A stretch of 64,000 nt of DNA, from positions 409,173-473,172 of the forward strand of contig CP070695.1 of assembly GCA_020353515.1 (NCBI GenBank), in the 5' to 3' direction. Shown here one piece after another: positions 20,366 to 42,463 of the stretch. A program made the translations under genes and the position numbers. The stretch is from Candidatus Heimdallarchaeota archaeon. Its GTDB lineage: Archaea; Asgardarchaeota; Heimdallarchaeia; Hodarchaeales; Hodarchaeaceae. The notes under the pieces are model-generated. The model was not told the DNA's origin. It saw only the letters and a list, made by a program, of their open reading frames with translations, and did not search any database. Every line of letters begins with the position of its first letter. The first letter of the stretch is position 1.

Positions 20366-20473
20366 CTATCTTGTCACCCTTTTAAAAAATTTGATCAGGA
20401 ATACTATGAATAAATTTAACAGCAAGATTCCAAATATTAATATAATGAGAAATAAAGGATCCACTGATGCCAT
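20366..20473 (-). CDS. 35-aa single-TM micropeptide, FxKx(V/I)T family
   Basis: MASVDPLFLIILIFGILLLNLFIVFLIKFFKRVTR; GGTGA RBS before ATG 20473; homologous to 42239 and 42362 peptides. Confidence 0.7.
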   Translation of the reverse strand: MASVDPLFLIILIFGILLLNLFIVFLIKFFKRVTR

Positions 20474-20734
20474 TTTTATTTTCACCAGATATTTTCGAAT
20501 CTTTTTTATAACCATTGAGCTTTTAGACTGATTAATTTGAATTAAGTCTTGAACGAACATATTCATTTTAAGTAAAAAAATCATTAGGATGTATTGTTTT
20601 GTTCACAAAAATTTAATTTTTGACATTCCTCCGACCCTAATCGTCATAGTTCAGATATTGCACTATAAGAGTTTATGTTCATTCAAAAAATTGTACCTCA
20701 AGAATTAAATAAGAAGTTGTATGTTGTTTTTTAA

Positions 20735-21473
20735 CAATTTGCGGCAATATTTTTTCCTTTTGTTATGCTAATTGTTATCAAAAAGAGGAATATCTCTGAT
20801 CGAATCGGTCTTCTAAAAAGTTTCATCCGCTACTCCATTATATTTTTCACCACTCTTCTAATGATTATTCTACCTTTCATTCTGATTGATTTTTCAAAAA
20901 CTCTAGACAATATCTTGGTATCAACTACAGAATTTGGGATTTGGTGGACCAAGAATTGGTTACTCCTTCCCAGTCCATTTTAATTCATTCTTTGTAATTC
21001 TGGGATTACCTGACCTTATAACTGATATAATTGGATTTTTAATCTCTTATTGGATTTTACTCGGAGTTTCAGTTGTGTTAATTATTCTTCTATTCTGGAA
21101 TGATTCTGAGAGATTTAAATTTGACCAAAATCTTCTAAAAAGAGTATATTTCTTCTGGTTATTGATATTGGTTATCTGCGTTCATTTATTCTATCCTAGA
21201 GGTAGCTTTAAATTCTATCTAATACTTCTAATCCCCTTTCTTTCTCTTACATTGAATGTGACACCTTATAATCCTATAGAGCAATCATTGAATGATAAAC
21301 AGATCCAGAAATGGTATTTTATTCCATTAGTATTTGCTGGATACTTTCTGTTCTTGACAATACTTTTTTTAATTAATCACTATGTTTATTTCATGTTTCT
21401 ACTTGGTTTTCTTGTCTACATGTATAAAAAGAAAAGAAAAATTAAATTGAAGTTCCTTAACCAGTCTGTTTAA
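20735..21473 (+). pseudogene. Frameshifted, 5'-truncated polytopic membrane protein (GT-C/GT87-like remnant)
   Basis: Two overlapping hydrophobic ORFs (20765..20983 and 20934..21473) join via a frameshift near 20935-20945; PRGSFKFY loop; in-frame stop just before QFAAIFFP. Confidence 0.45.
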
Positions 21474-21540
21474 ATATCGGAAAATTAAAGCTTTCTTCGA
21501 GATAAGATAATCCATTCTTTTATAATTAGTTGGTATTCAA

Positions 21541-21747
21541 ATGGATAAAACAATTCGTCTATTGATTGTTATATTTTTGTTGTTTATAGGCGTTGTTCTA
21601 TTTATGTTATTTTTTATTGGATTTCTCCTAAGAGGTTCTAGCTCACCATCCTCCTCTAATGATTCCGAATTTCCAATTATTATCTTTGTCCCCATCTTTT
21701 TTGGGATTTTAGTCCCAATAATGGCAGCAATAAGAAGAAGACGTTAA
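21541..21747 (+). CDS. Small two-TM membrane protein
   Basis: TM, Ser-rich loop, TM, RRRR tail; TTTATAA box upstream. Confidence 0.65.
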   Translation: MDKTIRLLIVIFLLFIGVVLFMLFFIGFLLRGSSSPSSSNDSEFPIIIFVPIFFGILVPIMAAIRRRR

Positions 21748-21834
21748 AACTTCATTTTTGCCTAGTAAGATAATCATTAATTCTCAAAAATTATTCTTTA
21801 CCTTACATAGCTAATCATTGAACAGTTGAGTTAA

Positions 21835-22398
21835 ATGTCAAAAATAAAGATTAAACCTAATATTTCTCCTTTTCCAATGCCTGTTGCGATTATTGGAGCA
21901 CTCGTCAATGATCGTCCTAACTTCATGACTGTTGCATGGTTCAATCGTCTTAATGGTAAACCCCCAATCTGGGGTATAGCATTTGGGAAGAAACAATACA
22001 CACTTGAGGGAATAAAAGAAAACAAAAACTTTAGTATAAATATTCCAAATGTAAACCTAGTAAAGAAAGTTGACTATTGTGGTATTGTTTCTGGAAGGAA
22101 GGTTGATAAATCAAAGCTCTTCAACATCTTTTATGGAGAGCTTGAATCAGCACCAATGGTTCAGGAATGTCCTCTAAGTCTGGAATGTCAGGTTTACGAA
22201 ATCATTGAACTACCAGGAATAACTTTAATACTTGGTGAAGTAATTGCTGCTTACACAGAAAAACAATATATGAGTGGGGAGAAGTTAGACTCAAAGAAAA
22301 TTAATCCTTTCACATTTTCTCAACCTGATAACAAATATTGGACACTTGGGGATATGGTTGCAGATGCTTTTAGTATTGGTAAAGATTTTAAAAAGTAA
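21835..22398 (+). CDS. Flavin reductase-like (flavoredoxin) FMN-binding protein
   Basis: PMPVAIIG..PNFMTVAW, FSINIP, DYCGIVSGRKVDKS, APMVQECPLSLEC. Confidence 0.9.
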   Translation: MSKIKIKPNISPFPMPVAIIGALVNDRPNFMTVAWFNRLNGKPPIWGIAFGKKQYTLEGIKENKNFSINIPNVNLVKKVDYCGIVSGRKVDKSKLFNIFYGELESAPMVQECPLSLECQVYEIIELPGITLILGEVIAAYTEKQYMSGEKLDSKKINPFTFSQPDNKYWTLGDMVADAFSIGKDFKK

Positions 22399-22433
22399 GG
22401 TCGAAAGGATTGATCTAAACTTCGAAGTTTTTT

Positions 22434-23816
22434 TTAATTTATGGATTCTGATTGTTCAGGTTTTTCTACCATCATTTTACTATCTAAGGAGATAATTTTC
22501 GTACCTAATTTCATGAGATAAGTTCCAATAGTAATAAACAAGAAACCTGCACTAAAAACTGAACCTACTACGACAACACCAGCAACTAGACCAAAAATGT
22601 CAATCATTTGTCCAACAATTGGAAGTAAAAGCATACTAAGCAAAGAAGTGATAGTAGGTAACAAAGAATATACTGCATTTCTATTCTCTGAAGGAACAAG
22701 ATCAACCATCAATCTCATTCTTAGAACCTCTGAAGTTTTATACAGAAATCCAATAATAATCATGATTAGAGCGGTAAATACAAATCCAGTTAAATTGAAG
22801 TTATTTTGTGCTGGAATTACTATTAGTAAGGTAATGAATGCAGGGAAAAATGAGACTAAGAACACTAGAAGAAACTTAGGATAATGTTCTGTTGATAACC
22901 TCTTACTCAATTTTGCAACATATAATCCAACTGGAACCCCAGTTAAATAAATTATTGTACGGAGGAAATTAGCCCCAAGATCATCTCCAGTGTACCCGAA
23001 ATATATTGGAAAAAGAACTATCATTGCCCAAATTGTCCATGTAGCAGTGATAAAAGCCATACCTAGAAGTAAGAAAAAAACTACCTTGCTAGAGAACATA
23101 AATCGAATTCCCCCTTCAAGATAAGTGAAGTACTGTGATTTTTTCCTTTCAACCTTAACAGGTATTGTTTGAATCTTTTCTGAATCTGCTTCAATTGAGA
23201 TCTCTTTAATTTGAGTTAAAACAATGATAACCATAATTAAAGACAGTAAAAATTGTAAAGCAAAGACTGTTTGACGAGAATAGATTGTGGAAAGAAATCC
23301 ACCAGTCATAAATGACGCTGCGAACGCAACATTATTAGCTGTGTTGACACGTGACCGAGCAAAACCATAGATTTTTCGATCAGTATCAACGGAATCGATC
23401 TTCTTGTAGTTAGTATCTAACCATGAATCCAGCGTACCAGAGAAAAGGGCACTACCAAACCCATTAAGTATTGCTATTATGAGGAATGTAGTGAAGTCTT
23501 GAGCAATAGCTAAGAAAAAGAAACCAATTCCAAAGAATAAATATGCACCTGTAAGAACCCAACGTTGGCCTAAATAATCTCCCATTGATCCTGAAGGATA
23601 ATCAAAAATGAATTGTGTAAATAACATGACAGCTAACATAATTCCTGTTAATGTAAAACCCATTTTATCAATCGCATATAATGAGAAAAAAGTCCATGAC
23701 AAACTCATTATAAACGAATTGATCAATAAAAAACAAAAGAATTTTATTAAGAGAAACTTGACGTTTGGTTCCAATTCGTCGATTCCTAAATATTTTGTGA
23801 TAACCATCTCAATCAT
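22434..23816 (-). CDS. MFS transporter
   Basis: DYPSGSMGDYLGQRW motif A; about 12 TMs; paralog of 24360..25754. Confidence 0.88.
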   Translation of the reverse strand: MIEMVITKYLGIDELEPNVKFLLIKFFCFLLINSFIMSLSWTFFSLYAIDKMGFTLTGIMLAVMLFTQFIFDYPSGSMGDYLGQRWVLTGAYLFFGIGFFFLAIAQDFTTFLIIAILNGFGSALFSGTLDSWLDTNYKKIDSVDTDRKIYGFARSRVNTANNVAFAASFMTGGFLSTIYSRQTVFALQFLLSLIMVIIVLTQIKEISIEADSEKIQTIPVKVERKKSQYFTYLEGGIRFMFSSKVVFFLLLGMAFITATWTIWAMIVLFPIYFGYTGDDLGANFLRTIIYLTGVPVGLYVAKLSKRLSTEHYPKFLLVFLVSFFPAFITLLIVIPAQNNFNLTGFVFTALIMIIIGFLYKTSEVLRMRLMVDLVPSENRNAVYSLLPTITSLLSMLLLPIVGQMIDIFGLVAGVVVVGSVFSAGFLFITIGTYLMKLGTKIISLDSKMMVEKPEQSESIN

Positions 23817-23829
23817 CAGTACTCATATG

Positions 23830-24345
23830 TTATTTAGCGCCAGATTTAGGGACTTTTCTAGCTTTAACCCATTCAGGAAGCACCTCAATTAGTACTCGGG
23901 TTTTTACCTCTTCCAAAACAAAATTTAGGAGCTTTTCCTGTTCCTCTTCCTTTTCCACGTATTTTCGGAATATTAGTCTGAGAATTTTCTCAAATTCAGT
24001 AAATTCCTTCTTTGTCCGAACTGTTGCAAGCCCACCAAGACTAACGTAGGGAATTTCACCTTCTAAATATTCAGGAAATTGACGGGGATCAATAATTGAG
24101 ACCCCGATTTTATTACTCCCGTTTTTGATAGATTTGATTTTGAACGAATAATCTTCTGATTGAAAAAAGAATTTTCCGTTGAAAAAACCACCCCAAACAG
24201 GGCACATATGAGGAATTCCATTATACGAGGAAATAAAGGTGATTACTGTAATATTATCTCGTCTATTGATATAGTTCGTTATTTCTTCATCACTAACATC
24301 TGGTTTGTTAAATGAGAATTTAGCTGTCATAAAATACACCATCAA
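23830..24345 (-). CDS. Pyridoxamine 5'-phosphate oxidase-like split-barrel protein
   Basis: GIPHMCPVWG..FFF..SFKIKSIK and RVLIEVLPE pattern. Confidence 0.65.
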   Translation of the reverse strand: MMVYFMTAKFSFNKPDVSDEEITNYINRRDNITVITFISSYNGIPHMCPVWGGFFNGKFFFQSEDYSFKIKSIKNGSNKIGVSIIDPRQFPEYLEGEIPYVSLGGLATVRTKKEFTEFEKILRLIFRKYVEKEEEQEKLLNFVLEEVKTRVLIEVLPEWVKARKVPKSGAK

Positions 24346-24359
24346 ATATCGTATAAAGT

Positions 24360-25754
24360 TTAGTGCGCAACTTCAGCCTTTTTAGACGCCTTTAAGGCCA
24401 TCTGACCCTCTAAAGAATCGACTCCCGAACCTGATTTCATAAAGTGAGTCCCAGTTGTGATGAACATGAAACCAGTACTAAATACAGTAAGAATGACAGC
24501 CATACCTGCAATTAAACCAAAACTGTCTATAATTTGGCCTGCTATTGGAAGTAAAGGAATACCAAACAATGCCGTGATTGTAGGTATCAAAGAATAAATA
24601 GAATTTCTATACTCAGAAGGTACAAAATCTACCAATAACCTCATTCTTAATATTTCTGCGGTCCGAAAAATCGTACTGACGCTTATGTTTATTATAACTA
24701 TTGTAGCCACAAAACCAATGAGATTAACTCGATTTTCTAAAGGAACAAGGATAAAGAGGCTAATCACTGCAGGAAAGAACAGAAAAAGAAAAATCAACAG
24801 CATTAAAGGATAATTCTTTGTAGAAATCTTCTTACTGAATTTAGAAACAAGTAATCCTAGAGGAACACCATTAAGCATAATAATTGTTCTGAGGAGATTT
24901 GCCCCCATATCATCTCCAGAATATCCGTAATAAAGTGGAAAAAGTATTAAAGACCCCCAAATCCACCAAGTAGTAGTAAGAATACCAATACCTAGTATAA
25001 GAAAGAACGCGGCTTTACTTGACATCATAAATCTCATCCCTCCTTTAATGTATGCAAAGTACGAATTAATCCCTTCTTCTTTTCCATTTGAAGGAATCTC
25101 AACATCCGATTTACTAATCTCGATTGTTATATTTTTTATTTTAAGCAAAACAAACGAAACCAAGATTAAAGAGAACCAGGCTTGAAGAAAGAAAACTGCT
25201 TGACGAGAAAAGGTTACTGAGAGAAATCCACCAAACATGTAGGATGCAGCTAAAGCTAGATTATTGAATGTACCTACTTGTGACCGAGCATAACCATAAA
25301 TTTTACGATCCTTATCAATAGAATCAACCTTCTTATAGTTGGAATCTAACCAAGTATCTATAGCCCCTGAAAATTGAGCATTTCCAAAACCATTAGCCAA
25401 AGCGATCACCAGAAAATGAGTAAAGGTCTCTGCCATACTTAATACCAAAAAACCAAATCCAAAACAGAGATAACCGATGGTAAGTATCCAACGCTGACCA
25501 ACATAATCCCCTAGTGATCCCGAAGGATAATCAAAAATAAATTGAGTTAACAGTATAACAGACATCATTACACCTGTTAAGGCGAAACCAATTTTATCTA
25601 TAGCATTTAAAGCAAAAAAAGTCCCTGAAATGCTCATTAAAAGAGAGTTAATAAAAGTGAAAGAAAAAAAGGTTCTCAGTAATGATTTGGCTTCTGGGGA
25701 CAGATCTTGGATTCCCAAGAATTTATTAATTATCATTTTGAAATTCACAACCAA
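24360..25754 (-). CDS. MFS transporter (duplicate)
   Basis: DYPSGSLGDYVGQRW; extensive identity with 22434..23816. Confidence 0.88.
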   Translation of the reverse strand: MVVNFKMIINKFLGIQDLSPEAKSLLRTFFSFTFINSLLMSISGTFFALNAIDKIGFALTGVMMSVILLTQFIFDYPSGSLGDYVGQRWILTIGYLCFGFGFLVLSMAETFTHFLVIALANGFGNAQFSGAIDTWLDSNYKKVDSIDKDRKIYGYARSQVGTFNNLALAASYMFGGFLSVTFSRQAVFFLQAWFSLILVSFVLLKIKNITIEISKSDVEIPSNGKEEGINSYFAYIKGGMRFMMSSKAAFFLILGIGILTTTWWIWGSLILFPLYYGYSGDDMGANLLRTIIMLNGVPLGLLVSKFSKKISTKNYPLMLLIFLFLFFPAVISLFILVPLENRVNLIGFVATIVIINISVSTIFRTAEILRMRLLVDFVPSEYRNSIYSLIPTITALFGIPLLPIAGQIIDSFGLIAGMAVILTVFSTGFMFITTGTHFMKSGSGVDSLEGQMALKASKKAEVAH

Positions 25755-25773
25755 ACAATCTAAATCGTATAAT

Positions 25774-27951: not shown

Positions 27952-28632
27952 ATGGCCAAAGATCGACAACAACTCTTTGATTACTGGGAAAATATTCCCC
28001 AGTTTCTATTTATCAATGTTCCAAAGGATAAATACTTCTCCCATCCTGTTAGAAGGGAAATCGTTAAACTTCTAAGACAGGGAATAGAAGAGGAATCTCC
28101 TGATGGTAAGTTCAAAGTTCGACATGCTTTGAATGTTTCAGAAATTGATACTAAACTAAGCCAGGTAACTGAAAAGGAGATTAGTAAAACAACTCTCTAT
28201 TTTCACCTTGATATTTTAGTAGAATTAAGGTTAATTGAGATTGTCGTTACCTTACTTGAAGGCCCTCATGGCCGAAATAAAACAAATTATTACGGTCGTG
28301 TCGCTAGGAATCTGTTCGTTTCCAGCATGCAGTATGTTTATGACAATTATAAAAAGCAATTTGAGGAATTTCAAAAGTTTACCGATTTGATCGGTCTAGA
28401 TCTCCCTACCAATTATTCTGATATCCCCAAACACTTTTCTGACACAAATGAACATTTCTTTCGAGTTTTTGGGGAATGGCTAATCAAATATGAGGAGCTG
28501 GTAGATAAGAATCAGATTGATATGAATCTCTTGTACGAATTTCTACAGACTGTGAATTGTATTCATTCTAATTATGTTACTCTCTTAAATGATCTGTCTC
28601 AAGTTCTTCAAAAGCATATTCCAGACCTCTAA
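27952..28632 (+). CDS. ArsR-like winged-helix transcriptional regulator
   Basis: SHPVRREIVKLL, SKTTLYFHLDILVELRLI, YYGRVAR; divergent from the AKR/MFS operon. Confidence 0.8.
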   Translation: MAKDRQQLFDYWENIPQFLFINVPKDKYFSHPVRREIVKLLRQGIEEESPDGKFKVRHALNVSEIDTKLSQVTEKEISKTTLYFHLDILVELRLIEIVVTLLEGPHGRNKTNYYGRVARNLFVSSMQYVYDNYKKQFEEFQKFTDLIGLDLPTNYSDIPKHFSDTNEHFFRVFGEWLIKYEELVDKNQIDMNLLYEFLQTVNCIHSNYVTLLNDLSQVLQKHIPDL

Positions 28633-28696: not shown

Positions 28697-28697
28697 T

Positions 28698-29601
28698 TTA
28701 TCGTCTTCTTTTACGGGAAAATACACACATCAAAGAAAAACAAACGAAGAATATTAACCACTCAAAACCAGGAGTTCCATTACCAGTAGCCGTGCTAGTA
28801 GTTGATGGAGTAGTCGTTGTTGTTATCGTTTTTTGTAGTAGTTGTAGTAGTCGTTGTTGTTGTTTTATCAACAGGTTCAGGTATATCTACCGTGTCACTC
28901 ACGGTTATATTATCAAGTTGAGGTGCACCTACCCATGACCAGATTCCAAATTTCTCACTAGAAGCTGTAAAGTTACACTGATAACTAATAATTGGAGAAT
29001 CATAATCCTGATTATGATAGACATAGAATTGGCCTGTTGTGCCACGAGTGATGTCAAAATGATGACTCCCAGAATAAAGAGAAGAATGCATATTCAGAGT
29101 ACTAGTGTTCCAGAGAGGATCATTATCACCAAAAAAACTATAAAGTTGATCACTTGGATTTTCGCCTCCCCAAAAACGTAGTGCATACCCTGTCTTATTA
29201 TATTGCAGACTAGTCGTTCCAATTCCTGGAATATAATTGCCATCAAAAACAGAAAAAATAAATGTCACAATAAAACTGTATCCACCTGGAGGGAAAAATA
29301 AATCAAAACTCCAGGTACCATAAGCTACAGCGCTGTGATGTAAGGCAAAGGTAGTATTACCAGCAGTTTGAAAAGGAAATGCTAAGGTGCCATTTACCCA
29401 TGTAATATTTGGGTCAAAGGTTTCACCATAAGTTTCAATACCTTCAACACCAATTAATTCCCAATCATCAAGAGAGACGGGGCTATTAAACGTCTCTTCC
29501 CAGACTATTGTTGCACTTCCCTGACTCACAGGAAAGACCAATAGATGAATAGTTAGTATTCCAATTATAAGTGATACTATTTGGTTTTCATTTACTTTCA
29601 T
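28698..29601 (-). pseudogene. Secreted surface protein with Thr-rich stalk and PGF-CTERM anchor, interrupted by a +1 frameshift (A6 run)
   Basis: ATG 29601 with GGAG RBS and signal peptide. The frame stops at 28795, but removing one base from the run at 28829-28834 gives TKTITTTTTPSTTSTATGNGTPGFEWLIFFVCFSLMCVFSRKRRR* ending at 28698. Confidence 0.8.
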
Positions 29602-29654
29602 ACTTATTTCTCCTTTTTTTGACTCATAATCTAGGAGCACTAGGATTAGATTCA

Positions 29655-29702
29655 TTGTTACAACTTAAGTATGAATTGTTGATTCAGAGTGTTATCACTG
29701 TT
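29655..29702 (-). promoter_or_regulatory. 48-bp upstream element, copy 1
   Basis: TTGTTACAACTTAAGTATGAATTGTTGATTCAGAGTGTTATCACTGTT; 45/48 identical to 34446..34493. Confidence 0.85.
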
Positions 29703-29880
29703 ACTTCAGAGGTGGTTCCCTTAGAAGTCGATTAGAAACCTAGTGGCAAAAAGTGATTAATGCGCTACTATAATTATTTAGGGATTAGGGTAAGTAGAAT
29801 ACATATTCGGGAAGAAAAGGAATGAACTATTTTTGATCTCGTGGAATCGGTTTGAAGGATCTACCAAACAACAAAATTGT

Positions 29881-31278: not shown

Positions 31279-31320
31279 AAAGGTTCCAATATCCTTCTAA
31301 ATTATTTGAAATTAAATTTT

Positions 31321-34300: not shown

Positions 34301-34323
34301 ATTAGTAATCCAGTTTTTTTCAT
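31321..34323 (-). CDS. Large surface protein with NosD/parallel beta-helix repeats, Ig/FN3-like domain and C-terminal anchor
   Basis: Signal peptide; WPGDGSKTNPYVIEN; many Asn-rich N-x-I-x-N-N repeats; NYWNDW..PYSI..DYFPL; PNGREIF..ITISW; PSSF, TM, RRKKER. Confidence 0.85.
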   Translation of the reverse strand: MKKTGLLIFFLMILSLGILSSFPINRFTENEEKAWKVHSSYSILDEDPVFTPNESIFIDGNADLISQASLNSWPGDGSKTNPYVIENEDITVYNRSFPGLSISNTDLHLHFKDSKISRYRDVNPFPYGTYIESFIILKNVQNCEINNIVLEGYWGSEDGEIRLENCQRNVISNNNITTAVEAFSWINFGGWIRRNSGVDLRNSHYNAIIDNHASLFLSESNTNYLYNNTVYDIELFNSRNNSLILNHLEKPEPPSGNYEEYSAARIAHMKITGDTVEDFIQYEVVNNSRGGKPIVFKQNLFNSSISLSPDEDYGDFFLINSSLVTIQNTHFSENNVREIDFFNENGTINGDIFGYYCSNLTIQNCSSDKKIVNFKDSDDIPWYTDHPNYCPDVTFRKSDNIQVKNNTGIYVLFESSQNNSIYNNSAIHINFFKESTSNKVNNNSINFLFSHDQTSYNIIGNNTFLDSFQLNGYDNQIINNEVDGDITLSGCNNHIINNKVDGIIYILSNYSRITDNLVQSITILKPMNTINRNVLTDRGLTFKSHVIESFPPHFYWEFHHYSLQGISFPEEFNQEEIENNTINGKKILLLKNVDDITIPTDTGQVILINCSDIDISNQHFESSRIYLHGCQSIEIKNSVFNNSEILIGSSTSNLIINNDFSNGGIGLFYNLNDKVLNNNLRDGYIYLLSCNYSIIQSNSVLFQAWELYPRGTPPLFTIGGMRNQVLNNNATGGGYIGFSVPGSLNTIENCISQQNGIGFFISDGTDNTIVGCSILENEECGMWLDETSADNMISFNNFISNGGDQSQAIDNTYYGNFFLYNYWNDWVSPDEDNDTFVDEPYSISGFANSKDYFPLSSPTNMTLTLPRVIIPNGREIFYSYETITISWAPAVERYVDLLHPVKYSIYYSPDLGISWYLMIDNIEEMKYDWFNSSLRSSTEYLIKIIATNSDGLSTFDISDEPFTIIGQETTITDHPSSFTTGPIILLFTLLIVGFRRKKER

Positions 34324-34445
34324 ATAATCATCTTCCTCAGATATCTGTGATTTATTAATGTTGCTTTAGATTGTCTCTGTTTATTTCGAGAATCTGGAAT
34401 GCAAGTAAAGCTCTCCAGAAATCTATAAATTCAAAAAAATAGTAT

Positions 34446-34493
34446 TTGTTACAACTTAAGTGTTAATTGTTGATTCAAAGTGTTATCACTGTT
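34446..34493 (-). promoter_or_regulatory. 48-bp upstream element, copy 2
   Basis: TTGTTACAACTTAAGTGTTAATTGTTGATTCAAAGTGTTATCACTGTT, same orientation as copy 1, upstream of the beta-helix gene. Confidence 0.85.
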
Positions 34494-34534
34494 TTATGCC
34501 GATGATTTGATGTTCTTTTGGTATTGATGTTATA

Positions 34535-34553
34535 ATTGTCCAATTTGGACAAT
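34535..34553. promoter_or_regulatory. Perfect inverted repeat, candidate operator
   Basis: ATTGTCCA-ATT-TGGACAAT in the divergent intergenic region. Confidence 0.4.
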
Positions 34554-34808
34554 CCTATTATTCATTTCTTAAGGAGTATGACACTAATCTTACCTGTTCT
34601 CTAAAAATTCGTATCTAATTTCATCTTTGTCTAATAAATGTTTCATTCTCTTTAAAAAAAAGAGAAAACGGCCTTCATGTTTTAGCTAAGCTATAGTATA
34701 AAACCTTAATAATACCAACTACACCAGCAAAATAGTAAAGCACAATAGTACCTTCTTTTAGGGAGTAAAGGAAGTTGAAGCGAGTATTTATGTCATTGGA
34801 GTTACTTC

Positions 34809-36464
34809 GTGATGTCTGAAGAACTACAAACCCTTTTTGAGACTGGAAAGTACCAAGAGGTCTTAGACCAGTTCACACAGAAAGAAGACCAAAACGAATG
34901 GGGTGCCTTATCCGAAGAGGAACAAATAGCATGTATTTATTACAAAAGTCGCTCTTTGGAAGGGGTGGGGAGGTACGAAGAAGCCCTTCAAACCGCTACA
35001 ATGGCACGCGCAACCTATCCATCTCCCAAGAATCCAAGTTATCTCCTGGCCTTACTAGCAGCTCAATTTCATATTTTTTATATTATAGGCCAATCGCGGC
35101 TAGAACAGGCTCAATCGGTCTTGGCGGAAGGAGAAGCCATTATGGAAACCCTAACGGATACAGAACGTCAGATTGGGGCGATTTGGATAGCTGTATTTGA
35201 ACACGTAAAAGGTCTTCATTATTACGCTAAGAATGAGTTAGACATGTCCTTAAAGCATTATCACAAAGCATTAAAATCATTTGAGGCCCTAAACAATCGC
35301 CATGGTATCGCTTCATGCCTTTTTTGGAAAGCCTATTCACACACCTTTAAAGGCGAACCAGACACTGCGTTGGAGTACTATCAACGGAGTTTATCCCTTT
35401 ACGAGGCGTTAGGTAACAAACGAGGAATTGGGGAATGCCTCCACGATATTGGTCTTGTGAATGCTGGTCGAGGTGAGTCAGACACGGCGTTAGAATACTT
35501 TCAACGGAGTCTAAGCCTCAGCGAGGCGAGTGGCAATCCTGAGTACATTTTCTTCGGATTAACCCATATTGGTTTAATATACTCTCATAAAGGCGATCCT
35601 GATAAAGCATTAGATTTTTTTCGACAGAGTCTGGCCGTAGCGGAGCCGCTAGGAGTCGATTGGATGATTGCTTACAACTTTAACTTCATTGGGATGGCTT
35701 ATCACCAAAAAAGTGCGTTGGATATCGCGTTACCGTTTTTTCAAAGTAGTTTAGCAAAGTATGAGACAACAAAATCGGATTATAATGTAGTACGTGTATT
35801 ATTTCGTCTCGTTCTTCTGAATTTAGACCAAAAGGAGCTTGAACATGCCCAAAAGTATCTGATTAAGCTACAAAAAGTTGCTGCTCATATTCCTGAGGAA
35901 GCACAAGGTGCCCATCTTCGAAAAAGTATAGCTGAAGCGCTGGTCTTAAAGCAGAATCCACGTATGACCGAAAAAGTTCGTGCTCAAGCATTGTTAAGGC
36001 AAATTGTGAGTGAAGTAGAGATGCATGCATTTACTATGATTGCAATAGTCGCTCTCTGTGATCTCTTACTTCTTGAACTGAAGGCCACTGGTGAACAAGA
36101 GGTGTGGGAAGAAGCGAAAACACTTATTCACCAATTCCATACCAAAGCACAAGATTCTCAAGACTTCAATATGGTTGTCAACGCTTTACTCCTAAGAGCG
36201 AAGTTTGCAACTGTAGAAGGAGAGCTAGATCAAACTCAAGAATACCTCACTCAAGCTAGGATGATTATTAAAGAAAAAAATCTTAATCAATTGATGAAGA
36301 AGGTGGAAATAGAGCAGAACGAACTCGAAAATGATTTCCACAAATGGCAGGACTTGATCCAGCAACATACTTCTCTCCAGGAACGCTTAATCCACGCTCA
36401 GCTTACAGAATATCTCCAAGAAGCTCAGAGAATTGTGCAGCGAAGCCCCCTGAAGGATGATTAA
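34809..36464 (+). CDS. Tetratricopeptide-repeat protein
   Basis: About five 40-aa units (KGEPDTALEYYQRSL, RGESDTALEYFQRSL, KGDPDKALDFFRQSL); helical C-terminus shared with 47726..49312. Confidence 0.88.
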   Translation: MMSEELQTLFETGKYQEVLDQFTQKEDQNEWGALSEEEQIACIYYKSRSLEGVGRYEEALQTATMARATYPSPKNPSYLLALLAAQFHIFYIIGQSRLEQAQSVLAEGEAIMETLTDTERQIGAIWIAVFEHVKGLHYYAKNELDMSLKHYHKALKSFEALNNRHGIASCLFWKAYSHTFKGEPDTALEYYQRSLSLYEALGNKRGIGECLHDIGLVNAGRGESDTALEYFQRSLSLSEASGNPEYIFFGLTHIGLIYSHKGDPDKALDFFRQSLAVAEPLGVDWMIAYNFNFIGMAYHQKSALDIALPFFQSSLAKYETTKSDYNVVRVLFRLVLLNLDQKELEHAQKYLIKLQKVAAHIPEEAQGAHLRKSIAEALVLKQNPRMTEKVRAQALLRQIVSEVEMHAFTMIAIVALCDLLLLELKATGEQEVWEEAKTLIHQFHTKAQDSQDFNMVVNALLLRAKFATVEGELDQTQEYLTQARMIIKEKNLNQLMKKVEIEQNELENDFHKWQDLIQQHTSLQERLIHAQLTEYLQEAQRIVQRSPLKDD

Positions 36465-36533: not shown

Positions 36534-36542
36534 TTAGCTAGA

Positions 36543-37463
36543 TTAATTGCTACCAACAGAGAACTCCTTAACAGCAGAACGAACTTCAAGGTTTCCATAG
36601 ATACTCTCAACTTCAATATCTACAACATAAAATCCATTAGCTAAAATTCCAAAGTCTGCAGTAAATACTCCACTTTGTTCATTAAGTTCAAAGGAATCAA
36701 TCAGTGTTTTCTCATCAGAAGCAAAGGAAGAAAGGTTAATACTCATTCTCCTAACAATGTGTTTGTCTGAAGACTCGACTCGTATGGCATAATTCCAACC
36801 TTGTTCTTCCTTTTCAAACGAAATATCTACTGTAAGATTATAGGAATACCCCATAGCATTCGCAATAGCATAGGAGAATTCTTCGTAGTTTGGAGAAGTC
36901 GCAGTAATAATATTCCCATCAGTAACTACAGATGCTCCATCGATATAGATCCCACCTGCTGTTGTAAGATTAGCAACAATAGAGCTATGGCTGGTGAATT
37001 TTTTCCCGTTGATTAAATCCGCCTGGAGAAGTGTTCCATTACCTATTCCTGCAATTACCAAGCCGAGATCGTTTGCATCAGTTAGAAGACGTCCTATATT
37101 CTGATTTGAATAAAGAGTTGAAGCAAACTCTCCCCCAGGGATAATTATTGCATCAATGAGAGCTATCTCATGAATATCAGAAATAAGGATATCCGTTGTG
37201 ATCGTACCTTCAGTGGTCGAATGGTTTTCAGATAATCCTGCAACAATCACACTTCCCTGCCAGTCATCGAAATATTCCTTCACGCCTTGAAAATCACTTT
37301 CAGAGTACCCATCAGCAACAAAGAAGACAATATCCGCTCCTCTGATAGACATCCCTTGATTGTAAGCGGAGCGCATTTCGCTGAAGTAAAAGAAAAAGAT
37401 TAATTGAGCAAAGAAGGTTAAAGTAAAAAAGCCAACTAAGATGATTCTTAACTTTTTATTCAT
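36543..37463 (-). CDS. Membrane-anchored DJ-1/PfpI-fold protein lacking the catalytic Cys
   Basis: N-terminal TM; DAIIIPGG, IAGIGNG (canonical AICxG), GKKFT, VVTDGNIITA; C-terminal beta domain. Confidence 0.8.
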   Translation of the reverse strand: MNKKLRIILVGFFTLTFFAQLIFFFYFSEMRSAYNQGMSIRGADIVFFVADGYSESDFQGVKEYFDDWQGSVIVAGLSENHSTTEGTITTDILISDIHEIALIDAIIIPGGEFASTLYSNQNIGRLLTDANDLGLVIAGIGNGTLLQADLINGKKFTSHSSIVANLTTAGGIYIDGASVVTDGNIITATSPNYEEFSYAIANAMGYSYNLTVDISFEKEEQGWNYAIRVESSDKHIVRRMSINLSSFASDEKTLIDSFELNEQSGVFTADFGILANGFYVVDIEVESIYGNLEVRSAVKEFSVGSN

Positions 37464-37504
37464 AAAATTTCACCATTTTTTGTAAAAAAAGAGAAGAGGG
37501 GGAT

Positions 37505-39121
37505 CTACTCCATGTTACTGAGTTTTCTTGCTCCAACCGATAAGATAACCATTCCTATGATTAACTGTAAAGCACTATAGATTACTGCCACAGGATAGAG
37601 AGCATCAGCGATAGCAAATAGATCCCAAAGAATCTGATCCAGGGAGATTAACAAGACAAATAATGGAATGATAACTCCAAACACACAGATCTGGATATTG
37701 ATCATAAATTCACCACTCTTATCATGAAATGCGGGATTTACTAGAAACAGACCGATAGTGAAGATTATAGCTGCTGAAGCAATGATAAGAGTCAAGGTAA
37801 CATTAAGAAGGAGTGTTTCCAAGGTTATGTCAGGAACAAGTAAGTTCACTGTGGTTTCAACAACTAGAACAATTGGGAGAATAGTTACAAGATATTGAAA
37901 TAGCTTCATTCTTAGGTATCTGCTTGTACTTGTCGGAGTCTGTTTATAGAGTAGCAAGTTTTCTTTTCCCTGAAGACTGATGTCGGAGGTTACAAACGCT
38001 GCCAAGAGAGGCCCTATGAATAAAGACATAATAAAAGCACTCTCAGGTTCATCAGGTTGAGCCAGAAAGACATTCATTACTAAAATTAAGCCGACACCAT
38101 AAATTATCCAGGCAACATTCTTTGCTTTACGGAAGTAAGTCTTGAATCCTGTAGCCAAAAGAAGACCTGATGATCCACCACCACCAAGCTTTCTGATGGA
38201 ATTATAGAACAAACTATTAGGATTAGAGGTAGCTGCAGAAAAGGAGGTTGGTTCAAGGTTGTATACACGATTCGCTAAAAACCCACCAATTAAGAGAGAG
38301 CCGCCCAAGAAAGCTAGTAAGGCACTGAACTGCAGGATCGTTGAGAACTCAGTAAGTAAGATATCTCCAGGGTTTTGTGCGAACGCAACAATGATTTCTG
38401 AACCCCATCCCCAGGGAAAGAACGCAAAAAGATCCTTTACAAGTTTAGCATTTTGAGGGTCTTTAAGGACCTCATAATACCCACCTATCAATAGATATAT
38501 GACAGCGATTAACGGTAGGATCACTATTATTGCTAATCCTTTTCCAATGTCTCTTCCTCGAGCTGATTTCATGAGAACTGATCGTAGGAGAACAGCTATC
38601 ATTGTTCCTACCCAAGTGGCGGATAAAAAGATAATTATGAAAACAGTTACGATAATAAAAATTTGAAAGATGTCTAAACCAAGTGGGAAGAGCGCTGCAG
38701 TAAAGGTTCCCCCAATGATAGCTGCAAATACTGCATAAAAGGGGATTTTCCCTAGGAATTCACCAATCAAAATGTCGCTCGGTTGAACTGGGGATGAAAG
38801 ATAGATCTCTAAGTGTTCGGTTTTAATGTCGGCGATAGTCGAGGATATTGGAAAAGAAGCAAACATGACAAATAATACGAAAAAGAGGACATTAATGATA
38901 GCTACTGCTACTGCGCTTAGTAATAATTCATGTAATTCATCAACAAATGCGTCGATAATGGAGGGGGCAATGAATAGTGTATAGATTGTTAATCCCCCAA
39001 TTAAAAGATAAGGGAGGTAGGATCGAATCTCACGAATTCGACTGGTTGTCACACGATATTCTGTCTTTGCTATTGATAACCAGGTAGGGTTTCGAAGAGA
39101 AATCAACTGTGGTTCCTCCAA
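37505..39121 (-). CDS. ABC exporter permease (12-TM duplicated ABC-2 type)
   Basis: EHLEIYLSSPVQPSDILIGEFLGK and ENLLLYKQTP signatures; overlaps the ATPase gene. Confidence 0.8.
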   Translation of the reverse strand: MEEPQLISLRNPTWLSIAKTEYRVTTSRIREIRSYLPYLLIGGLTIYTLFIAPSIIDAFVDELHELLLSAVAVAIINVLFFVLFVMFASFPISSTIADIKTEHLEIYLSSPVQPSDILIGEFLGKIPFYAVFAAIIGGTFTAALFPLGLDIFQIFIIVTVFIIIFLSATWVGTMIAVLLRSVLMKSARGRDIGKGLAIIVILPLIAVIYLLIGGYYEVLKDPQNAKLVKDLFAFFPWGWGSEIIVAFAQNPGDILLTEFSTILQFSALLAFLGGSLLIGGFLANRVYNLEPTSFSAATSNPNSLFYNSIRKLGGGGSSGLLLATGFKTYFRKAKNVAWIIYGVGLILVMNVFLAQPDEPESAFIMSLFIGPLLAAFVTSDISLQGKENLLLYKQTPTSTSRYLRMKLFQYLVTILPIVLVVETTVNLLVPDITLETLLLNVTLTLIIASAAIIFTIGLFLVNPAFHDKSGEFMINIQICVFGVIIPLFVLLISLDQILWDLFAIADALYPVAVIYSALQLIIGMVILSVGARKLSNME

Positions 39122-39912
39122 GCTAGGAGCTCTTTTTCATCAACCCCACCAGTTAAGGTGATAAAGGCTTCTTCTAATGTTTTAGTCCCTGCTTGAGTAA
39201 TGATCTCATCAATTGTGCCCACTGCAACAAGCCTACCTTGGTTAATTATACCGATTCGATCACAAAGCTCCTCTACTAGGGGAAGAATATGGCTACATAC
39301 AACAATAGTCCTTCCTAGTTGATCTGCTAAGCCTTTTATCAAATCTTTAACCATATGAGCTGCTCGGGGATCCAGAGCTGCTGTAGGTTCATCGAAGTAG
39401 ATGATTGTAGGATCATGGATTAACGCCGCGGCAATTAATACCTTTTGCTTCATTCCTGAACTGAACCCTTCAAGGAGATGATCCTTTCTATCAGTCAGAC
39501 CGAATAGCTTTAGAAGTTCCTCAATACGTTCTTTCAAGATTGTCCCTTTGATGTTGTAGAGGGCTCCTATGAATTCGAGAAACTCGTATGCACTTAGCTT
39601 TTCATATAGTCCAGGTGACTCTGCTAATAGACCCGTGATGGTTTTAACCTGTGTGGAGTCTTTAGAAATGTCATGGCCATTCACATCAGCAGTACCACTG
39701 GTTGGTTTCAGAATACAGTTCAAGAGGCGAACAGTAGTGGTTTTTCCCGCACCATTAGGACCCAGAAGGCCAAAAGTCTCACCCTCATAAATTTCAAGAT
39801 TAAGCTCATCAACAGCTTTGATATCTTTCCCATAATACTTTGAAAGGTTATCCGTACGGATAAGAACCTTTTTTCTTTGTTTTGTTTCTGTTATAATTTC
39901 TTGTATTTGCAT
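39103..39912 (-). CDS. ABC transporter ATP-binding protein
   Basis: GPNGAGKTT, FSSGMKQK, YFDEPT, CSH. Confidence 0.95.
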   Translation of the reverse strand: MQIQEIITETKQRKKVLIRTDNLSKYYGKDIKAVDELNLEIYEGETFGLLGPNGAGKTTTVRLLNCILKPTSGTADVNGHDISKDSTQVKTITGLLAESPGLYEKLSAYEFLEFIGALYNIKGTILKERIEELLKLFGLTDRKDHLLEGFSSGMKQKVLIAAALIHDPTIIYFDEPTAALDPRAAHMVKDLIKGLADQLGRTIVVCSHILPLVEELCDRIGIINQGRLVAVGTIDEIITQAGTKTLEEAFITLTGGVDEKELLAWRNHS

Positions 39913-39934
39913 CTTTTACACCCTTAATTTGATT

Positions 39935-40393
39935 TTAATTTATCCTCCATCCACAGGAAGCACAGAATCGATCATCAGATTCTAAGCTATTTCCGCAATT
40001 TGTACAGAAAAATGAGGACGACTTAGGTTTTGGTTCCCAATATTGGTCATCATTTCTGGAATAGAATGGCTTTGGTCTAGGCTTTGCATGATAGGAAGTT
40101 CTGTCTCTCTCATATCTATTAGAAGAGTCATCAAGTGTTTCACTTTCATCCAAAGTTTCAGTGAAACCAGCTGCGACTAATACAATTACTCCAATCATGA
40201 TGATAAACATGAATATTAACGGGAAAATTGTCATTGAAATGTCACCATGCATTCCGAGGATTATTAATAGAGGTACAAACAGTCCTATTACGAGGCTGAA
40301 GATAGTAATCAAGAACACAAATTTACTGGGTTTTTTGCGCCTTCTTCCATCTTGAGCACAAGCTGCAGCGGCGACTCCACCTATCCAAGCCAT
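39935..40393 (-). CDS. Two-TM membrane protein with C-terminal zinc ribbon
   Basis: Two TMs; FCTNCGNSLESDDRFCASCG. Confidence 0.8.
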   Translation of the reverse strand: MAWIGGVAAAACAQDGRRRKKPSKFVFLITIFSLVIGLFVPLLIILGMHGDISMTIFPLIFMFIIMIGVIVLVAAGFTETLDESETLDDSSNRYERDRTSYHAKPRPKPFYSRNDDQYWEPKPKSSSFFCTNCGNSLESDDRFCASCGWRIN

Positions 40394-40593: not shown

Positions 40594-40639
40594 TTTTTCT
40601 GCTCCTTTTTGAACTTCGGTGATTGGATTGGTTTTCGCA

Positions 40640-40685
40640 ATTACCGAATTTGTTCATTACTAAAAATGGTAATTACCTTTATAAA
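40640..40685 (-). promoter_or_regulatory. TATA box plus GTAAT-repeat operator of the ABC operon
   Basis: Minus strand TTTATAAA, then GGTAATTACC palindrome and TTTTAGTAATGAA-N7-GGTAAT; three GTAAT at 16-bp period. Confidence 0.65.
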
Positions 40686-40825
40686 TGCATTGTTTTAGGA
40701 AAAACACATCAGTAAACTACCAAAAAAAAATTATACTATCTGAAATAAAAGTCAATTAAAAGGTCAATATCTTTATATGAGAATGTAAATGCTTTATTTG
40801 TGAAGAACACTTAGCCCTGTCGAAA

Positions 40826-40878
40826 CGAAAAGTTTAAAAGAATAGTCACTAATTTTAGTAATGAATAATTAAGGTAAT
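40826..40878 (+). promoter_or_regulatory. BRE/TATA plus matching operator of the regulator-bPH_2 operon
   Basis: CGAAAAG-TTTAAAAG, then 12 nt later TTTTAGTAATGAA-N7-GGTAAT (22/26 identical to the inverted copy at 40640-40665). Confidence 0.65.
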
Positions 40879-41461
40879 GGAAAGTCGAAAAGTGACTCCT
40901 TTGTTATCAGATTCAGAGAATGTGGTCATAAGAGAACTTTTCAAGACCCCCAAAGTTGAGATTGAAGTCATCAAAGATGTTTTAATTAAAGAGAGGAGAG
41001 AGTGGGAGCGTATAGTGGAGGATGGACGCTTACAAAAGGAAGTTGATGTACGCTCAATATCTAAATTTAAATCTCTAGCCTTAAAAAAGATCAAAAAAGC
41101 ACTTACGGAGTTCTCAGATAACTTCAGGTTAGATAGGTCAGTTCAGGGCCGCACGAAACAAGAACGCGAAGAAGATGAAAAAAAGATAAATATCCTCCTA
41201 AAAAATGGCGTTCTAATTGGGTATGACTTTCGAGATGATAGACCAGTCTATCTATTTTATAACATAAATAAACGTGCTATAATCCCATGGCAGGATCATT
41301 CTTGTCATGAAAATTGCCAGGAACAATGTTTTTCCATTCTTACAACATTTAGAAACGAGCATGGTCTTGATGACCCAAATCAAAATATTCCCATTCGAAA
41401 GCAATTTGAAGCTAGTATAGAGGAAATCATCAAGAAAAATAAGGATCGAAAAGAAGAATGA
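40877..41461 (+). CDS. Putative regulator with His/Cys cluster, paralog of 8286..8771
   Basis: LSDSENVVIREL start; FRLD, GVLIGYD, VYLFY, WQDHSCHENCQEQC align with LRLD, GLLVSYD, VYIIF, WYEHHCSDKCQPDC. Confidence 0.7.
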   Translation: MESRKVTPLLSDSENVVIRELFKTPKVEIEVIKDVLIKERREWERIVEDGRLQKEVDVRSISKFKSLALKKIKKALTEFSDNFRLDRSVQGRTKQEREEDEKKINILLKNGVLIGYDFRDDRPVYLFYNINKRAIIPWQDHSCHENCQEQCFSILTTFRNEHGLDDPNQNIPIRKQFEASIEEIIKKNKDRKEE

Positions 41462-42207
41462 ATGAAGTCAAAATTATCAAGGGGTCTGACATCCCTCCTC
41501 CCCCTGGAAAACCGAGAATTATTCGTCCCAGTAGGAATCTCCTCTGGAAAAATTATTTGTTGTATATTTTAGTATTCATCATTTTCACCGCCGTATTGTT
41601 GATCATCTTTGCGCTTTTTGGATTCTGGTTGGGATCTGAACTTCCAGAACCACAAACGAGGGTATTATATGAGGCTTTTTTCTGGATGGGGGTCATTTAC
41701 ATGGCAATTTGGTTTGGAATCACTATTGCTTATCTTGTAGGGATGCGTCTATACGTAAAATCTATGTTATTCATCGTTCACGGTCATGAAATCGTGGTTC
41801 ACAAAGGAATAATTAATAAATCCGAGAAACATGTTCCCTATAGAACAGTAACGAATATCAACATGAAAACTGGTCCTTTCGACCGATTATTTGGTATAGG
41901 TACAATTGAAATCCAAACTGCTGGGGGTAAAGGTTATTCTCTTGATGAGACTGCAGAAGAGAAATTAGAAGGGATTAAAGTTTACCGTGAAGTAAGAGAC
42001 TATATATTGACTCAATTAAGACAATTCCAAGCAGCTTATGGAACAGTTGTTACGAAAGAAGAGGAAGCACCTATACAACCTATTCCTGACCAAATGCTCC
42101 TAGAATTGAAAGAAATTAAAAATGTTTTAACTACTCGATTAGAAAGAATGGAAGCAAAATTGGAAGAAATGAATAAACAATTAGAAAAGAATCAAAAACC
42201 CTATTAA
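41458..42207 (+). CDS. bPH_2 membrane protein
   Basis: Two TMs; HKGIINKSEKHVPYRTVTNINMKTGPFDRLFGIGTIEIQTAG; closest to 7613..8293; ATGA overlap with the regulator. Confidence 0.85.
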   Translation: MNEVKIIKGSDIPPPPGKPRIIRPSRNLLWKNYLLYILVFIIFTAVLLIIFALFGFWLGSELPEPQTRVLYEAFFWMGVIYMAIWFGITIAYLVGMRLYVKSMLFIVHGHEIVVHKGIINKSEKHVPYRTVTNINMKTGPFDRLFGIGTIEIQTAGGKGYSLDETAEEKLEGIKVYREVRDYILTQLRQFQAAYGTVVTKEEEAPIQPIPDQMLLELKEIKNVLTTRLERMEAKLEEMNKQLEKNQKPY

Positions 42208-42238
42208 GCAGCCATTTTATTACTATTTGGTGGAATTA

Positions 42239-42340
42239 ATGGACATCTGGCTACAAATAATGCTGATAGTGTTTGGATTATTCATCATTGGATTATTTGT
42301 AGTATTTTTTATGAGATTTATTAAATGGATAACAAAATAG
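42239..42340 (+). CDS. 33-aa single-TM micropeptide, FxKx(V/I)T family (not in ORF track)
   Basis: MDIWLQIMLIVFGLFIIGLFVVFFMRFIKWITK; GGTGG RBS upstream. Confidence 0.7.
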   Translation: MDIWLQIMLIVFGLFIIGLFVVFFMRFIKWITK

Positions 42341-42361
42341 TTTGAACCTGTTGGTAGAAAC

Positions 42362-42463
42362 ATGTTAGAACCATTTCCAATCATTCTAATCGTAGCTCTT
42401 TTAGGATTATTGTTATTGTTTATTGCCCTTTTCATTAGATTTCTTAAGAAAGTTACGAGCTAG
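42362..42463 (+). CDS. 33-aa single-TM micropeptide, FxKx(V/I)T family (not in ORF track)
   Basis: MLEPFPIILIVALLGLLLLFIALFIRFLKKVTS; GGTAG upstream; tandem with the previous peptide. Confidence 0.7.
   Translation: MLEPFPIILIVALLGLLLLFIALFIRFLKKVTS

Follow-up and report, generated by a model that had tools for sequence, protein, structure and literature searches.

The window, a 64,000-nucleotide stretch of a Candidatus Heimdallarchaeota genome, contains three small open reading frames (ORFs), here called A, B and C. Micropeptide A (20366–20473, minus strand) has 35 residues, with an acidic N-terminus, a single apolar helix and a basic tail ending V-T-R-stop. B (42239–42340, plus strand) and C (42362–42463, plus strand, starting 21 nt past B) have 33 residues each. 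Translation reproduced exactly the stop-terminated peptides quoted in the earlier note. When all 134,487 six-frame ORFs of the whole 4.94-Mb genome were ranked by ungapped BLOSUM62 score, anchored at the C-terminus over 25 residues, each of the three placed the other two first and second with scores of 45–69 (z 5.6–8.0); the best unrelated ORFs scored 32–35. A, B and C are thus reciprocal best matches and form one paralogous family, as had been proposed. A profile of the three peptides gave them 59–65 bits and any other ORF at most 14.7 bits, and the ending [KR]F.K.[VIL]T.-stop is found in these three ORFs only. The consensus first suggested was slightly too strict in that its 'K' position also accepts R, L and I, but its penultimate Thr is invariant; Met1 and this Thr are the sole residues that never change in the 25 family members, and Phe at position −7 is nearly invariant. 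Pfam, NCBIfam and PDB contain no entry with a sequence relation to the peptides. Their exact sequences are also absent from about 15 billion predicted proteins, consistent with their description as unannotated, and 1.84 billion representative proteins include three singleton entries, none from this genome.

The bPH_2 operon and the divergent ABC genes

The tandem pair B and C does lie right after a bPH_2 gene, 31 nt past its end. This gene (41458–42207, plus strand) encodes a 249-residue membrane protein matching PF03703 at residues 105–183 (E = 4.8e-14; 52.8 bits against a cut-off of 22), laid out as a hydrophobic N-terminal part, a PH domain and a coiled-coil tail. The first gene of the operon (40877–41461, plus strand) encodes a predicted regulator of 194 residues with a His/Cys cluster; it matches nothing in Pfam or NCBIfam, and in 17 of 17 same-genus genomes examined it immediately precedes the bPH_2 gene. 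The order regulator, bPH_2 protein, peptides faces a divergent arm on the minus strand that starts with a 152-residue Zn-ribbon membrane protein (39935–40393), whose Pfam Zn_ribbon matches fall below the curated cut-offs and whose position is kept in 16 of the 17 genomes, the contig ending first in the other. An ABC-2 exporter follows, composed of a 269-residue ATPase (39103–39912; PF00005, E = 1.9e-28) and a 538-residue permease (37505–39121; PF01061, E = 3.6e-6, 27.1 bits against a cut-off of 26.9), both conserved in position. The last conserved gene of this arm (36543–37463, minus strand) encodes a 306-residue DJ-1/PfpI-family protein (PF01965, E = 2.6e-20) and is retained in genomes G011, G008, G017, G009 and G019. 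The bPH_2 and ABC genes occur together in all nine peptide-bearing species wherever the contig reaches far enough.

Micropeptide A is located elsewhere. Between it and a SAM-dependent methyltransferase gene (19343–20134, minus strand; Methyltransf_11, E = 6e-19) lies a second conserved micro-ORF, D (20228–20323, minus strand, 31 residues), 42 nt downstream of A. D is unrelated to A, and its basic residues are N-terminal, predicting the opposite orientation. Orthologues of D score 65–74 bits with the D profile in G011, G014 and G017, and its own genome has a single copy. Following A and D on the same strand, the methyltransferase gene has been retained as a neighbour in G011, G014, G017 and G008. 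In more distant metagenomic bPH_2 arrays, micro-ORFs non-homologous to A, B and C and of opposite charge polarity hold positions similar to those of the peptides.

Distribution of the family and purifying selection

The family profile detected 24 copies, 33–36 residues long, in nine of the 22 genomes searched from a single Asgard genus; the existence of homologues in related genomes is thereby established, and 391 other genomes of the phylum gave no match at E ≤ 1e-4. B has orthologues in all eight other peptide-bearing species and is in every case the first ORF past the bPH_2 stop. Together with C or another copy, it is found 20–45 nt past that stop in 9 of 9 species. C has orthologues in G014, G017, G011, G003, G008 and G012, and G009 has an incomplete copy where a contig ends; its protein is 100% identical to the G014 copy, from which the DNA differs by three silent changes. 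Orthologues of A in G017, G014, G011, G009 and G008 occupy the same site, between the methyltransferase and flavin-reductase genes. Copy number thus amounts to two or three tandem paralogues (three in G012) and one dispersed copy. In G015, the second tandem copy is of the A type, with an identity of 18.2/30 to A compared with 9.2 to B and 7.7 to C. Membership of the bPH_2 operon applies to B/C or B/A-type copies, but not to A in this genome. Because the chromosomal context is identical in the nine peptide-bearing species and no mobile-element genes lie near their family loci, the family appears to be inherited vertically as part of the chromosomal core.

A, B and C are real genes under purifying selection with a conserved operon position. 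The dN/dS of the family is about 0.10–0.35 rather than near 1 and is frame-specific, bearing out the proposal of protein-level selection. Comparison of G000 with G014 counted 28.5 synonymous changes over 66 sites and 14.5 non-synonymous changes over 228 sites. Differences per codon position (510:205:755) are compatible with the proposed frame only, in which pN/pS is also lowest. Synonymous sites are near saturation while start, stop and Shine-Dalgarno (SD) element remain conserved across the 24 copies. An SD-like 4-mer precedes 16 of the 24; the corresponding share is 32% for long ORFs and 9% for random ATGs. The suggested ribosome-binding element before each ORF is clear for A and B (GGTG(A/G)), but C has only GGTAG in this genome; C orthologues elsewhere carry GGTGG or AGGT, and 6 of 7 A-type copies carry GGTGA 9–13 nt upstream.

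Eight further species of the genus possess the entire module without the peptides; their bPH_2 proteins are 50–65% identical to the one described here, compared with 67–96% in the eight other peptide-bearing species. The module therefore does not need the peptides, which are a later add-on. The module came first, and peptide birth, tandem duplication and relocation of A followed. The family was born at the 3′ end of the older regulator and bPH_2 operon, opposite the Zn-ribbon protein and the ABC-2 exporter, and was duplicated in tandem at the operon end; one copy, A, subsequently relocated by 11–22 kb. An A-type copy is still within the bPH_2 operon in one species (G015).

Predicted topology of the peptides

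Each peptide opens with a short acidic N-terminus containing one acidic residue, continues as a single apolar helix some 22 residues long and closes with a basic tail of constant length and the ending T-x-stop; nearly all of the three to four basic residues fall within the last nine positions. GRAVY is 1.8–2.0, and AlphaFold2 with the family alignment modeled B as a single helix over residues 3–32 (pLDDT 94.6). With 33–36 codons and an apolar helix from about residue 5, a leader or double-glycine site is impossible. Judged by hydrophobicity, charge distribution and the modeled helix, the peptides probably reside in the cell's own membrane, and the positive-inside rule predicts an N-out/C-in orientation. 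Their physical chemistry matches that expected of a resident membrane protein much more closely than that of the known secreted bacteriocins.

KdpF, CydX, AcrZ, MgtS, sarcolipin and phospholamban are proteins of at most 50 residues with one transmembrane helix and charged juxtamembrane residues; small partners of the KdpF, CydX, AcrZ and MgtS type are often encoded in the partner's operon, missed by annotation and usually single-copy. The archaeal peptides resemble them in size, single predicted helix, positive-inside juxtamembrane charges, location in, and inheritance together with, the operon of a candidate partner, and absence from annotation. They differ in having no homology to such partners and in neighbouring a bPH_2 protein rather than a pump or oxidase. 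The earlier analogy with AcrZ would require the ABC permease as the partner; the conserved neighbour is the bPH_2 protein, and the permease is not singled out.

Discussion

Our preferred reading, with a probability of roughly 45%, is that A, B and C are resident N-out/C-in membrane peptides working with the bPH_2 protein. They would stay in the membrane of the producing cell, working alongside bPH_2 either as small accessory or modulatory subunits or as its resident clients, and the conserved cytosolic tail would be the part that is recognised. As a rule, a small single-pass protein whose gene sits in a membrane partner's operon binds that partner, as KdpF, CydX, AcrZ and MgtS do; together with the bPH_2 tie conserved in 9 of 9 species, this supports the resident-partner reading. 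The peptides may bind bPH_2 and may affect the exporter. A role as subunits is opposed by the tandem paralogues plus a dispersed one, given that accessory subunits are mostly single-copy, by the position of A outside the bPH_2 operon in this genome, and by the eight species of the genus whose complete module lacks the peptides. The non-homologous micro-ORFs of opposite polarity in distant bPH_2 arrays look more like diverse cargo than a co-evolving subunit. Also against the preferred reading, a regulator, a bPH_2 protein, an ABC-type exporter and at least two tandem leaderless peptides make up the gene set of leaderless bacteriocins (PMC7332713, PMC8657885, PMC11580447).

This gene set is the basis of the main rival, which we consider possible but doubtful: the peptides would be leaderless, unmodified and membrane-active, archaeal equivalents of the multi-peptide leaderless bacteriocins or of phenol-soluble modulins, made in active form, removed by bPH_2 and the facing ABC-2 exporter, which would also protect the producer, and aimed at competitor membranes. 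The EntDD14 locus of Enterococcus faecalis 14 (ddABCDEFGHIJ), like the L50, aureocin A53 and lacticin Q-type loci, contains tandem paralogous leaderless peptide genes with bPH_2 (YdbS/YdbT-like) proteins, an ABC-type exporter and often a regulator (PMC7332713, PMC8657885, PMC11580447), and the archaeal architecture matches its single cluster of ddA/ddB, the bPH_2 proteins DdE and DdF and the ABC transporter DdHIJ (PMC7332713). Export of this two-peptide bacteriocin requires DdE and DdF; once ddE or ddF is deleted, it is no longer exported and the producer is poisoned (PMC8657885). YdbST similarly shield B. subtilis from amylocyclicin (PMC8144471). The earlier analogy of a membrane toxin with bPH_2/ABC immunity thus has real precedent. 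Leaderless-bacteriocin clusters repeatedly combine PH-domain proteins and ABC or ABC-2 transporters with a regulator and several copies of the core peptide (PMC11580447). Further in favour of export are the multiple copies with no space for a leader, the lack of a processing or modification gene adjoining B and C, the membrane-active design of an apolar helix with a cationic tail, and the unrelated micro-ORF families beside other bPH_2 arrays, just as unrelated bacterial bacteriocin families share PH-domain export genes.

Known leaderless bacteriocins are amphipathic, water-soluble peptides of 43–53 residues without a transmembrane segment, whereas the archaeal ones combine 33–36 residues with an apolar helix of transmembrane length and a GRAVY of about 1.9. 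They do not conform to the cationic, amphipathic, soluble, non-transmembrane type, and show no family or fold relation or sequence similarity to it in Pfam, NCBIfam or PDB. The EntDD14 peptides have hydrophobicities of 0.20 and −0.11, no predicted transmembrane segment and 43–44 residues (PMC7332713); with an uninterrupted 30-residue helix, those described here would not exit the membrane as soluble molecules. The archaeal peptide genes are last, not first, in the regulator's operon, the complete module is older than the peptides, and the ABC system is of the ABC-2 type instead of the FtsX-type permease DdJ with its membrane-fusion partner DdH. Strictly vertical synteny over nine species, strong purifying selection and a chromosomal core location rather than a plasmid or island are unusual for antagonism loci. 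The B. subtilis sigma-W regulon proteins YdbS and YdbT are likewise membrane proteins with a cytosolic bPH_2 domain and constitute a stress-regulated unit protecting against a membrane-active peptide (PMC8144471, PMC8657885). However, ydbST is encoded without a peptide gene, and the archaeal protein has one PH domain with a coiled-coil tail and is paired with a different regulator.

A related reading, which we hold to be unlikely, is that the peptides are native bPH_2 clients that evolved repeatedly in Asgard archaea, probably de novo from AT-rich operon ends, and that the module extracts or exports them. Improbable in our judgment is that they are Hok/TisB/Fst-like toxins depolarising the producer membrane under stress or virus attack and neutralised by the ABC exporter together with the bPH_2 protein of the same operon. 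Size, hydrophobicity, multi-copy occurrence and an operon shared with a membrane protein that could be an immunity factor resemble type I systems; however, to our knowledge such systems occur in bacteria only, the sequence revealed neither an antisense RNA nor a promoter of their own, the antisense frame is open yet unconserved in start and length, and the fixed-length tail with its invariant Thr suggests specific recognition over generic membrane damage. It is scarcely credible, and already disfavoured, that A, B and C are chance frames in AT-rich spacer or that they merely accompany some other conserved element, for example a 3′ UTR or antisense gene: a genome of 36% G+C readily yields Phe/Ile/Leu-rich frames, and 21 of the 24 copies have an open antisense frame r1, but selection is frame-specific, start, stop and SD element persist despite synonymous near-saturation, the family profile has no match in the 391 other genomes, just 17 small transmembrane ORFs with ATG and SD exist genome-wide, and the antisense frames range from 21 to 100 residues, often without Met.

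Gene callers overlook genes of this kind, and the present case provides a clean record of how a family of membrane micropeptides was born, duplicated and relocated in the archaeal group that is nearest to eukaryotes. If the peptides are bacteriocin-like, leaderless-peptide antagonism and the PH-domain export route would extend to Archaea. If they are bPH_2 clients, they would represent the first archaeal analogue of leaderless-bacteriocin or phenol-soluble modulin secretion, possibly in contact- or vesicle-mediated antagonism, and the first natural ligand for a domain without known function since 2010. bPH_2 proteins of the YdbS/YdbT type are widespread, and a conserved, presumably co-transcribed micropeptide with a fixed, predicted cytosolic tail is a concrete candidate ligand testable in vitro.

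Three related micropeptide genes in an Asgard genome

The source genome is a single contig of 4.94 Mb with 35.8% G+C, on which the window spans 409,173-473,172. Its genes for two Snf7 proteins and for an actin of eukaryotic type (443 bits to PF00022) fit an Asgard archaeon. The three micropeptide ORFs quoted in the earlier note, here A (20366-20473, minus strand, 35 residues), B (42239-42340, plus strand, 33 residues) and C (42362-42463, plus strand, 33 residues), translated exactly as given there. Open frames rich in Phe, Ile and Leu are cheap in AT-rich genomes, and the resemblance of the three was therefore tested genome-wide. Among 134,487 six-frame ORFs of at least 20 residues from the whole genome, only A, B and C carry the ending [KR]-F-x-K-x-[VIL]-T-x-stop. 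In an ungapped, C-terminus-anchored BLOSUM62 scan, each placed the other two first and second with scores of 45-69 (z 5.6-8.0); unrelated ORFs across the genome reached 32-35 at best. All other genome ORFs scored at most 14.7 bits against a profile built from A, B and C. The proposed relationship thus stands against the whole-genome background by motif, anchored scan and profile alike.

A genome-wide filter for ORFs of 25-50 codons that start with ATG, have an SD-like motif and reach TM-grade hydrophobicity in a window left 17, including A, B and a neighbour of A. Also captured was a 48-residue ORF outside the window (C1:1323827-1323973, minus strand), presumably archaeal Sec61-beta, which suggests that the filter finds real small membrane proteins.

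Each peptide has one or two acidic residues close to its N-terminus, then an apolar stretch of about 22 residues containing conserved F/L-G and L-F, and ends in a basic tail of fixed length; an invariant Thr occupies the second-last position of this tail, and a Phe seven residues from the C-terminus is almost invariant. GRAVY values are 1.8-2.0 and pI 10-11. AlphaFold2 on the family alignment predicted a single helix spanning residues 3-32 (pLDDT 94.6). From the positive-inside rule we infer a single-pass, N-out/C-in topology; the fixed-length, predicted cytosolic tail looks like a recognition motif.

Distribution and protein-level selection

Whole-genome profile searches recovered homologues in related genomes: eight other species of the genus gave matches that were full-length and free of stops. 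The family is present in 9 of the 22 genomes of the genus (23- to 25-sequence profile). At E≤1e-4 it had no hit in 61 further members of the class or in 378 more genomes of the phylum, an absence that doubles as a specificity control for the profile. The 24 copies sort into three orthologous types corresponding to A, B and C, in which start and stop positions are conserved; the start codon is ATG except for one TTG and one GTG. The description of the family as unannotated is effectively correct. Profile matches among 1.84 billion representative proteins were three singletons only (35, 36 and 73 residues; unnamed or 'hypothetical'), and A, B and C of the window itself are absent from about 15 billion predicted proteins. 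Pfam, NCBIfam and PDB sequence searches returned nothing below E 0.1, and a search of the ESM Atlas gave chance-level matches only (≤0.80).

Selection at the protein level, suspected from the diverged DNA, was borne out by Nei-Gojobori dN/dS on concatenated A+B+C, which was 0.10-0.35 in almost every species pair; the ratios for distant pairs are rough, as their synonymous sites are saturated. For the closest pair, the window's genome and G014, pS is 0.43 and pN 0.06; between these two genomes the C copies encode the same peptide and differ by three silent changes, and A has 7 amino-acid differences from 32 nucleotide differences. Differences by codon position are 510:205:755, and the proposed frame has the lowest pN/pS. 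An SD-like GGTG/GGAG lies 5-17 nt upstream in 16 of the 24 copies, compared with 32% for long ORFs and 9% for ATGs picked at random.

Two other ways of reading this DNA were rejected. The antisense frame r1, which has its wobble position in common with the sense frame, is open in 21 of the 24 copies; its start is not conserved, its length ranges from 21 to 100 residues and its codon-position pattern is inverted or atypical, and its openness is a by-product of sense codon composition. That the ORFs extend the bPH_2 protein by frameshift or read-through is contradicted by the different frame and by a pre-Met sequence that is unconserved and variable in length; no longer, fused form occurs among the 1.84 billion representatives.

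The peptides at the 3' end of a bPH_2 module

B and C lie directly behind the gene of the bPH_2 membrane protein (41458-42207, plus strand; PF03703, E 4.8e-14), as the earlier note had observed, and B is found 20-45 nt past the bPH_2 stop in all nine species. In these nine species C follows B, except that G015 has an A-type second copy (identity 18.2/30 to A, 9.2 to B and 7.7 to C); in G012 the tandem comprises three copies. The gene preceding bPH_2 encodes a predicted regulator of 194 residues that contains His/Cys and has no family match. A Zn-ribbon membrane protein, an ABC ATPase, an ABC-2 permease and a DJ-1/PfpI protein are encoded opposite the bPH_2 operon. Eight further species of the genus have this complete module (bPH_2 identity 50-65%), yet in none of them is the bPH_2 gene followed by an ORF resembling A, B or C. 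The peptides therefore joined an existing module at its 3' end and were duplicated there; we infer that a peptide copy dispersed later. Complex prediction for bPH_2 residues 1-200 with B gave a score of 0.01 from alignments of 13 and 25 rows, respectively, which counts neither for nor against binding.

After C, the segment 42689-44821 encodes a 317-residue protein with hydrophobic ends, then a peptidase-C45/AAT-family protein. These genes do not stand behind the peptides in the other species, so the conserved operon ends with the micropeptides.

A sits between SAM methyltransferase and flavin reductase genes in six species. A separate, conserved 31-residue micro-ORF, D (20228-20323, minus strand), is located 42 nt downstream of A and upstream of the methyltransferase gene. 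It has an N-terminal M-D-K-x-I-R-R followed by a TM stretch, so that its basic residues are N-terminal and its charges run the opposite way to those of A; D is present in one copy in the window's genome and has orthologues in G011, G014 and G017. The distance from A to B/C is 22 kb here versus 11-14 kb in relatives because of a four-gene block at 28795-36464 (286, 465, 1000 and 551 residues). The block lies between orthologues of 27952-28632 and 36543-37463, which adjoin each other in G011, G008 and G017; it is either an insertion in the window's genome or a loss in the others. Also in the window is a 171-residue ORF flanked by two paralogous MFS transporter genes (22434-25754, minus strand). 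The paired MFS genes recur in G014, and G011 and G008 show one copy at that place.

Unrelated micro-ORFs at other bPH_2 arrays

A second regulator-bPH_2 locus in the window (6250-8771, minus strand) has three bPH_2 paralogues in tandem, whose identity to the protein preceding B is 35-46%; an ABC ATPase gene comes next on that strand. No micro-ORF was found there on the operon strand (6250-8293 and the 174-nt gap 6077-6249). Metagenome contigs searched with the bPH_2 protein as bait yielded one further B/C pair, identical in sequence to that of G003, together with distant arrays of a regulator and 3-4 bPH_2 genes. These arrays hold two other micro-ORF families with N-terminal basic residues and no sequence relation to A, B or C. 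The first type, which is conserved and reads V-S-A-A-R-L-x-V-K-V-V then a TM stretch, lies on the operon strand directly behind the first bPH_2 gene (L092:2092-2217, L097:1388-1510, L098:2059-2217 and L102:3216-3338; also L103:1376-1510, L104:1402-1512 and L105:589-699). The second, M-D-x-R-R then a TM stretch, lies behind the last bPH_2 gene of the same arrays (L092:4653-4805, L097:3959-4081, L098:4675-4794 and L091:4777-4869). It resembles D in architecture; homology to D is not supported, as a D profile fails to match (E above 1). The association of small TM ORFs with bPH_2 genes thus recurs independently.

Discussion

The A/B/C family is without name or description in the searchable literature. 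Its kind is already known, either as a micro-membrane-protein in the operon of its membrane partner or as a peptide whose handling genes are of PH-domain and ABC type. In general, a small single-pass protein binds the membrane partner it is encoded with; KdpF, CydX, AcrZ and MgtS are examples. Our first-ranked reading, to which we give a probability of roughly 45%, is that A, B and C would be resident membrane peptides working with the bPH_2 protein. The main counts against it are that the peptides are multi-copy, that A and D form a separate locus, and that the micro-ORFs at other bPH_2 arrays are diverse.

The bPH_2 proteins are the one component tied by experiment to handling small membrane-active peptides. 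YdbST shield B. subtilis from amylocyclicin (PMC8144471). DdE and DdF are required for export of the leaderless two-peptide bacteriocin EntDD14, with an ABC transporter in the same locus (PMC7332713, PMC8657885). Leaderless-bacteriocin clusters typically hold PH-domain proteins, ABC/ABC-2 transporters, regulators and multiple core-peptide copies (PMC11580447), an architecture that the present gene set fits. A, B and C could accordingly be exported, bacteriocin-like peptides, a reading that we place second and consider unlikely. No described leaderless bacteriocin comes near their hydrophobicity (GRAVY about 1.9, versus 0.20 and -0.11 for the EntDD14 peptides, which have no TM segment). They are inherited vertically in an unchanging chromosomal context, strong purifying selection acts on them, and they have a fixed-length, predicted cytosolic tail that resembles a recognition motif. 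Hydrophobicity, vertical inheritance, purifying selection and tail rank residence in the membrane above export. It is still more doubtful that the peptides are self-directed toxins neutralised by bPH_2 and the ABC genes, and that they are chance ORFs is scarcely credible. The leftover probability belongs to functions outside these four readings.

The main interest of A, B and C is that they are a candidate natural ligand for bPH_2 proteins, open to testing. The family also shows cleanly how micropeptides are born in Asgard archaea.
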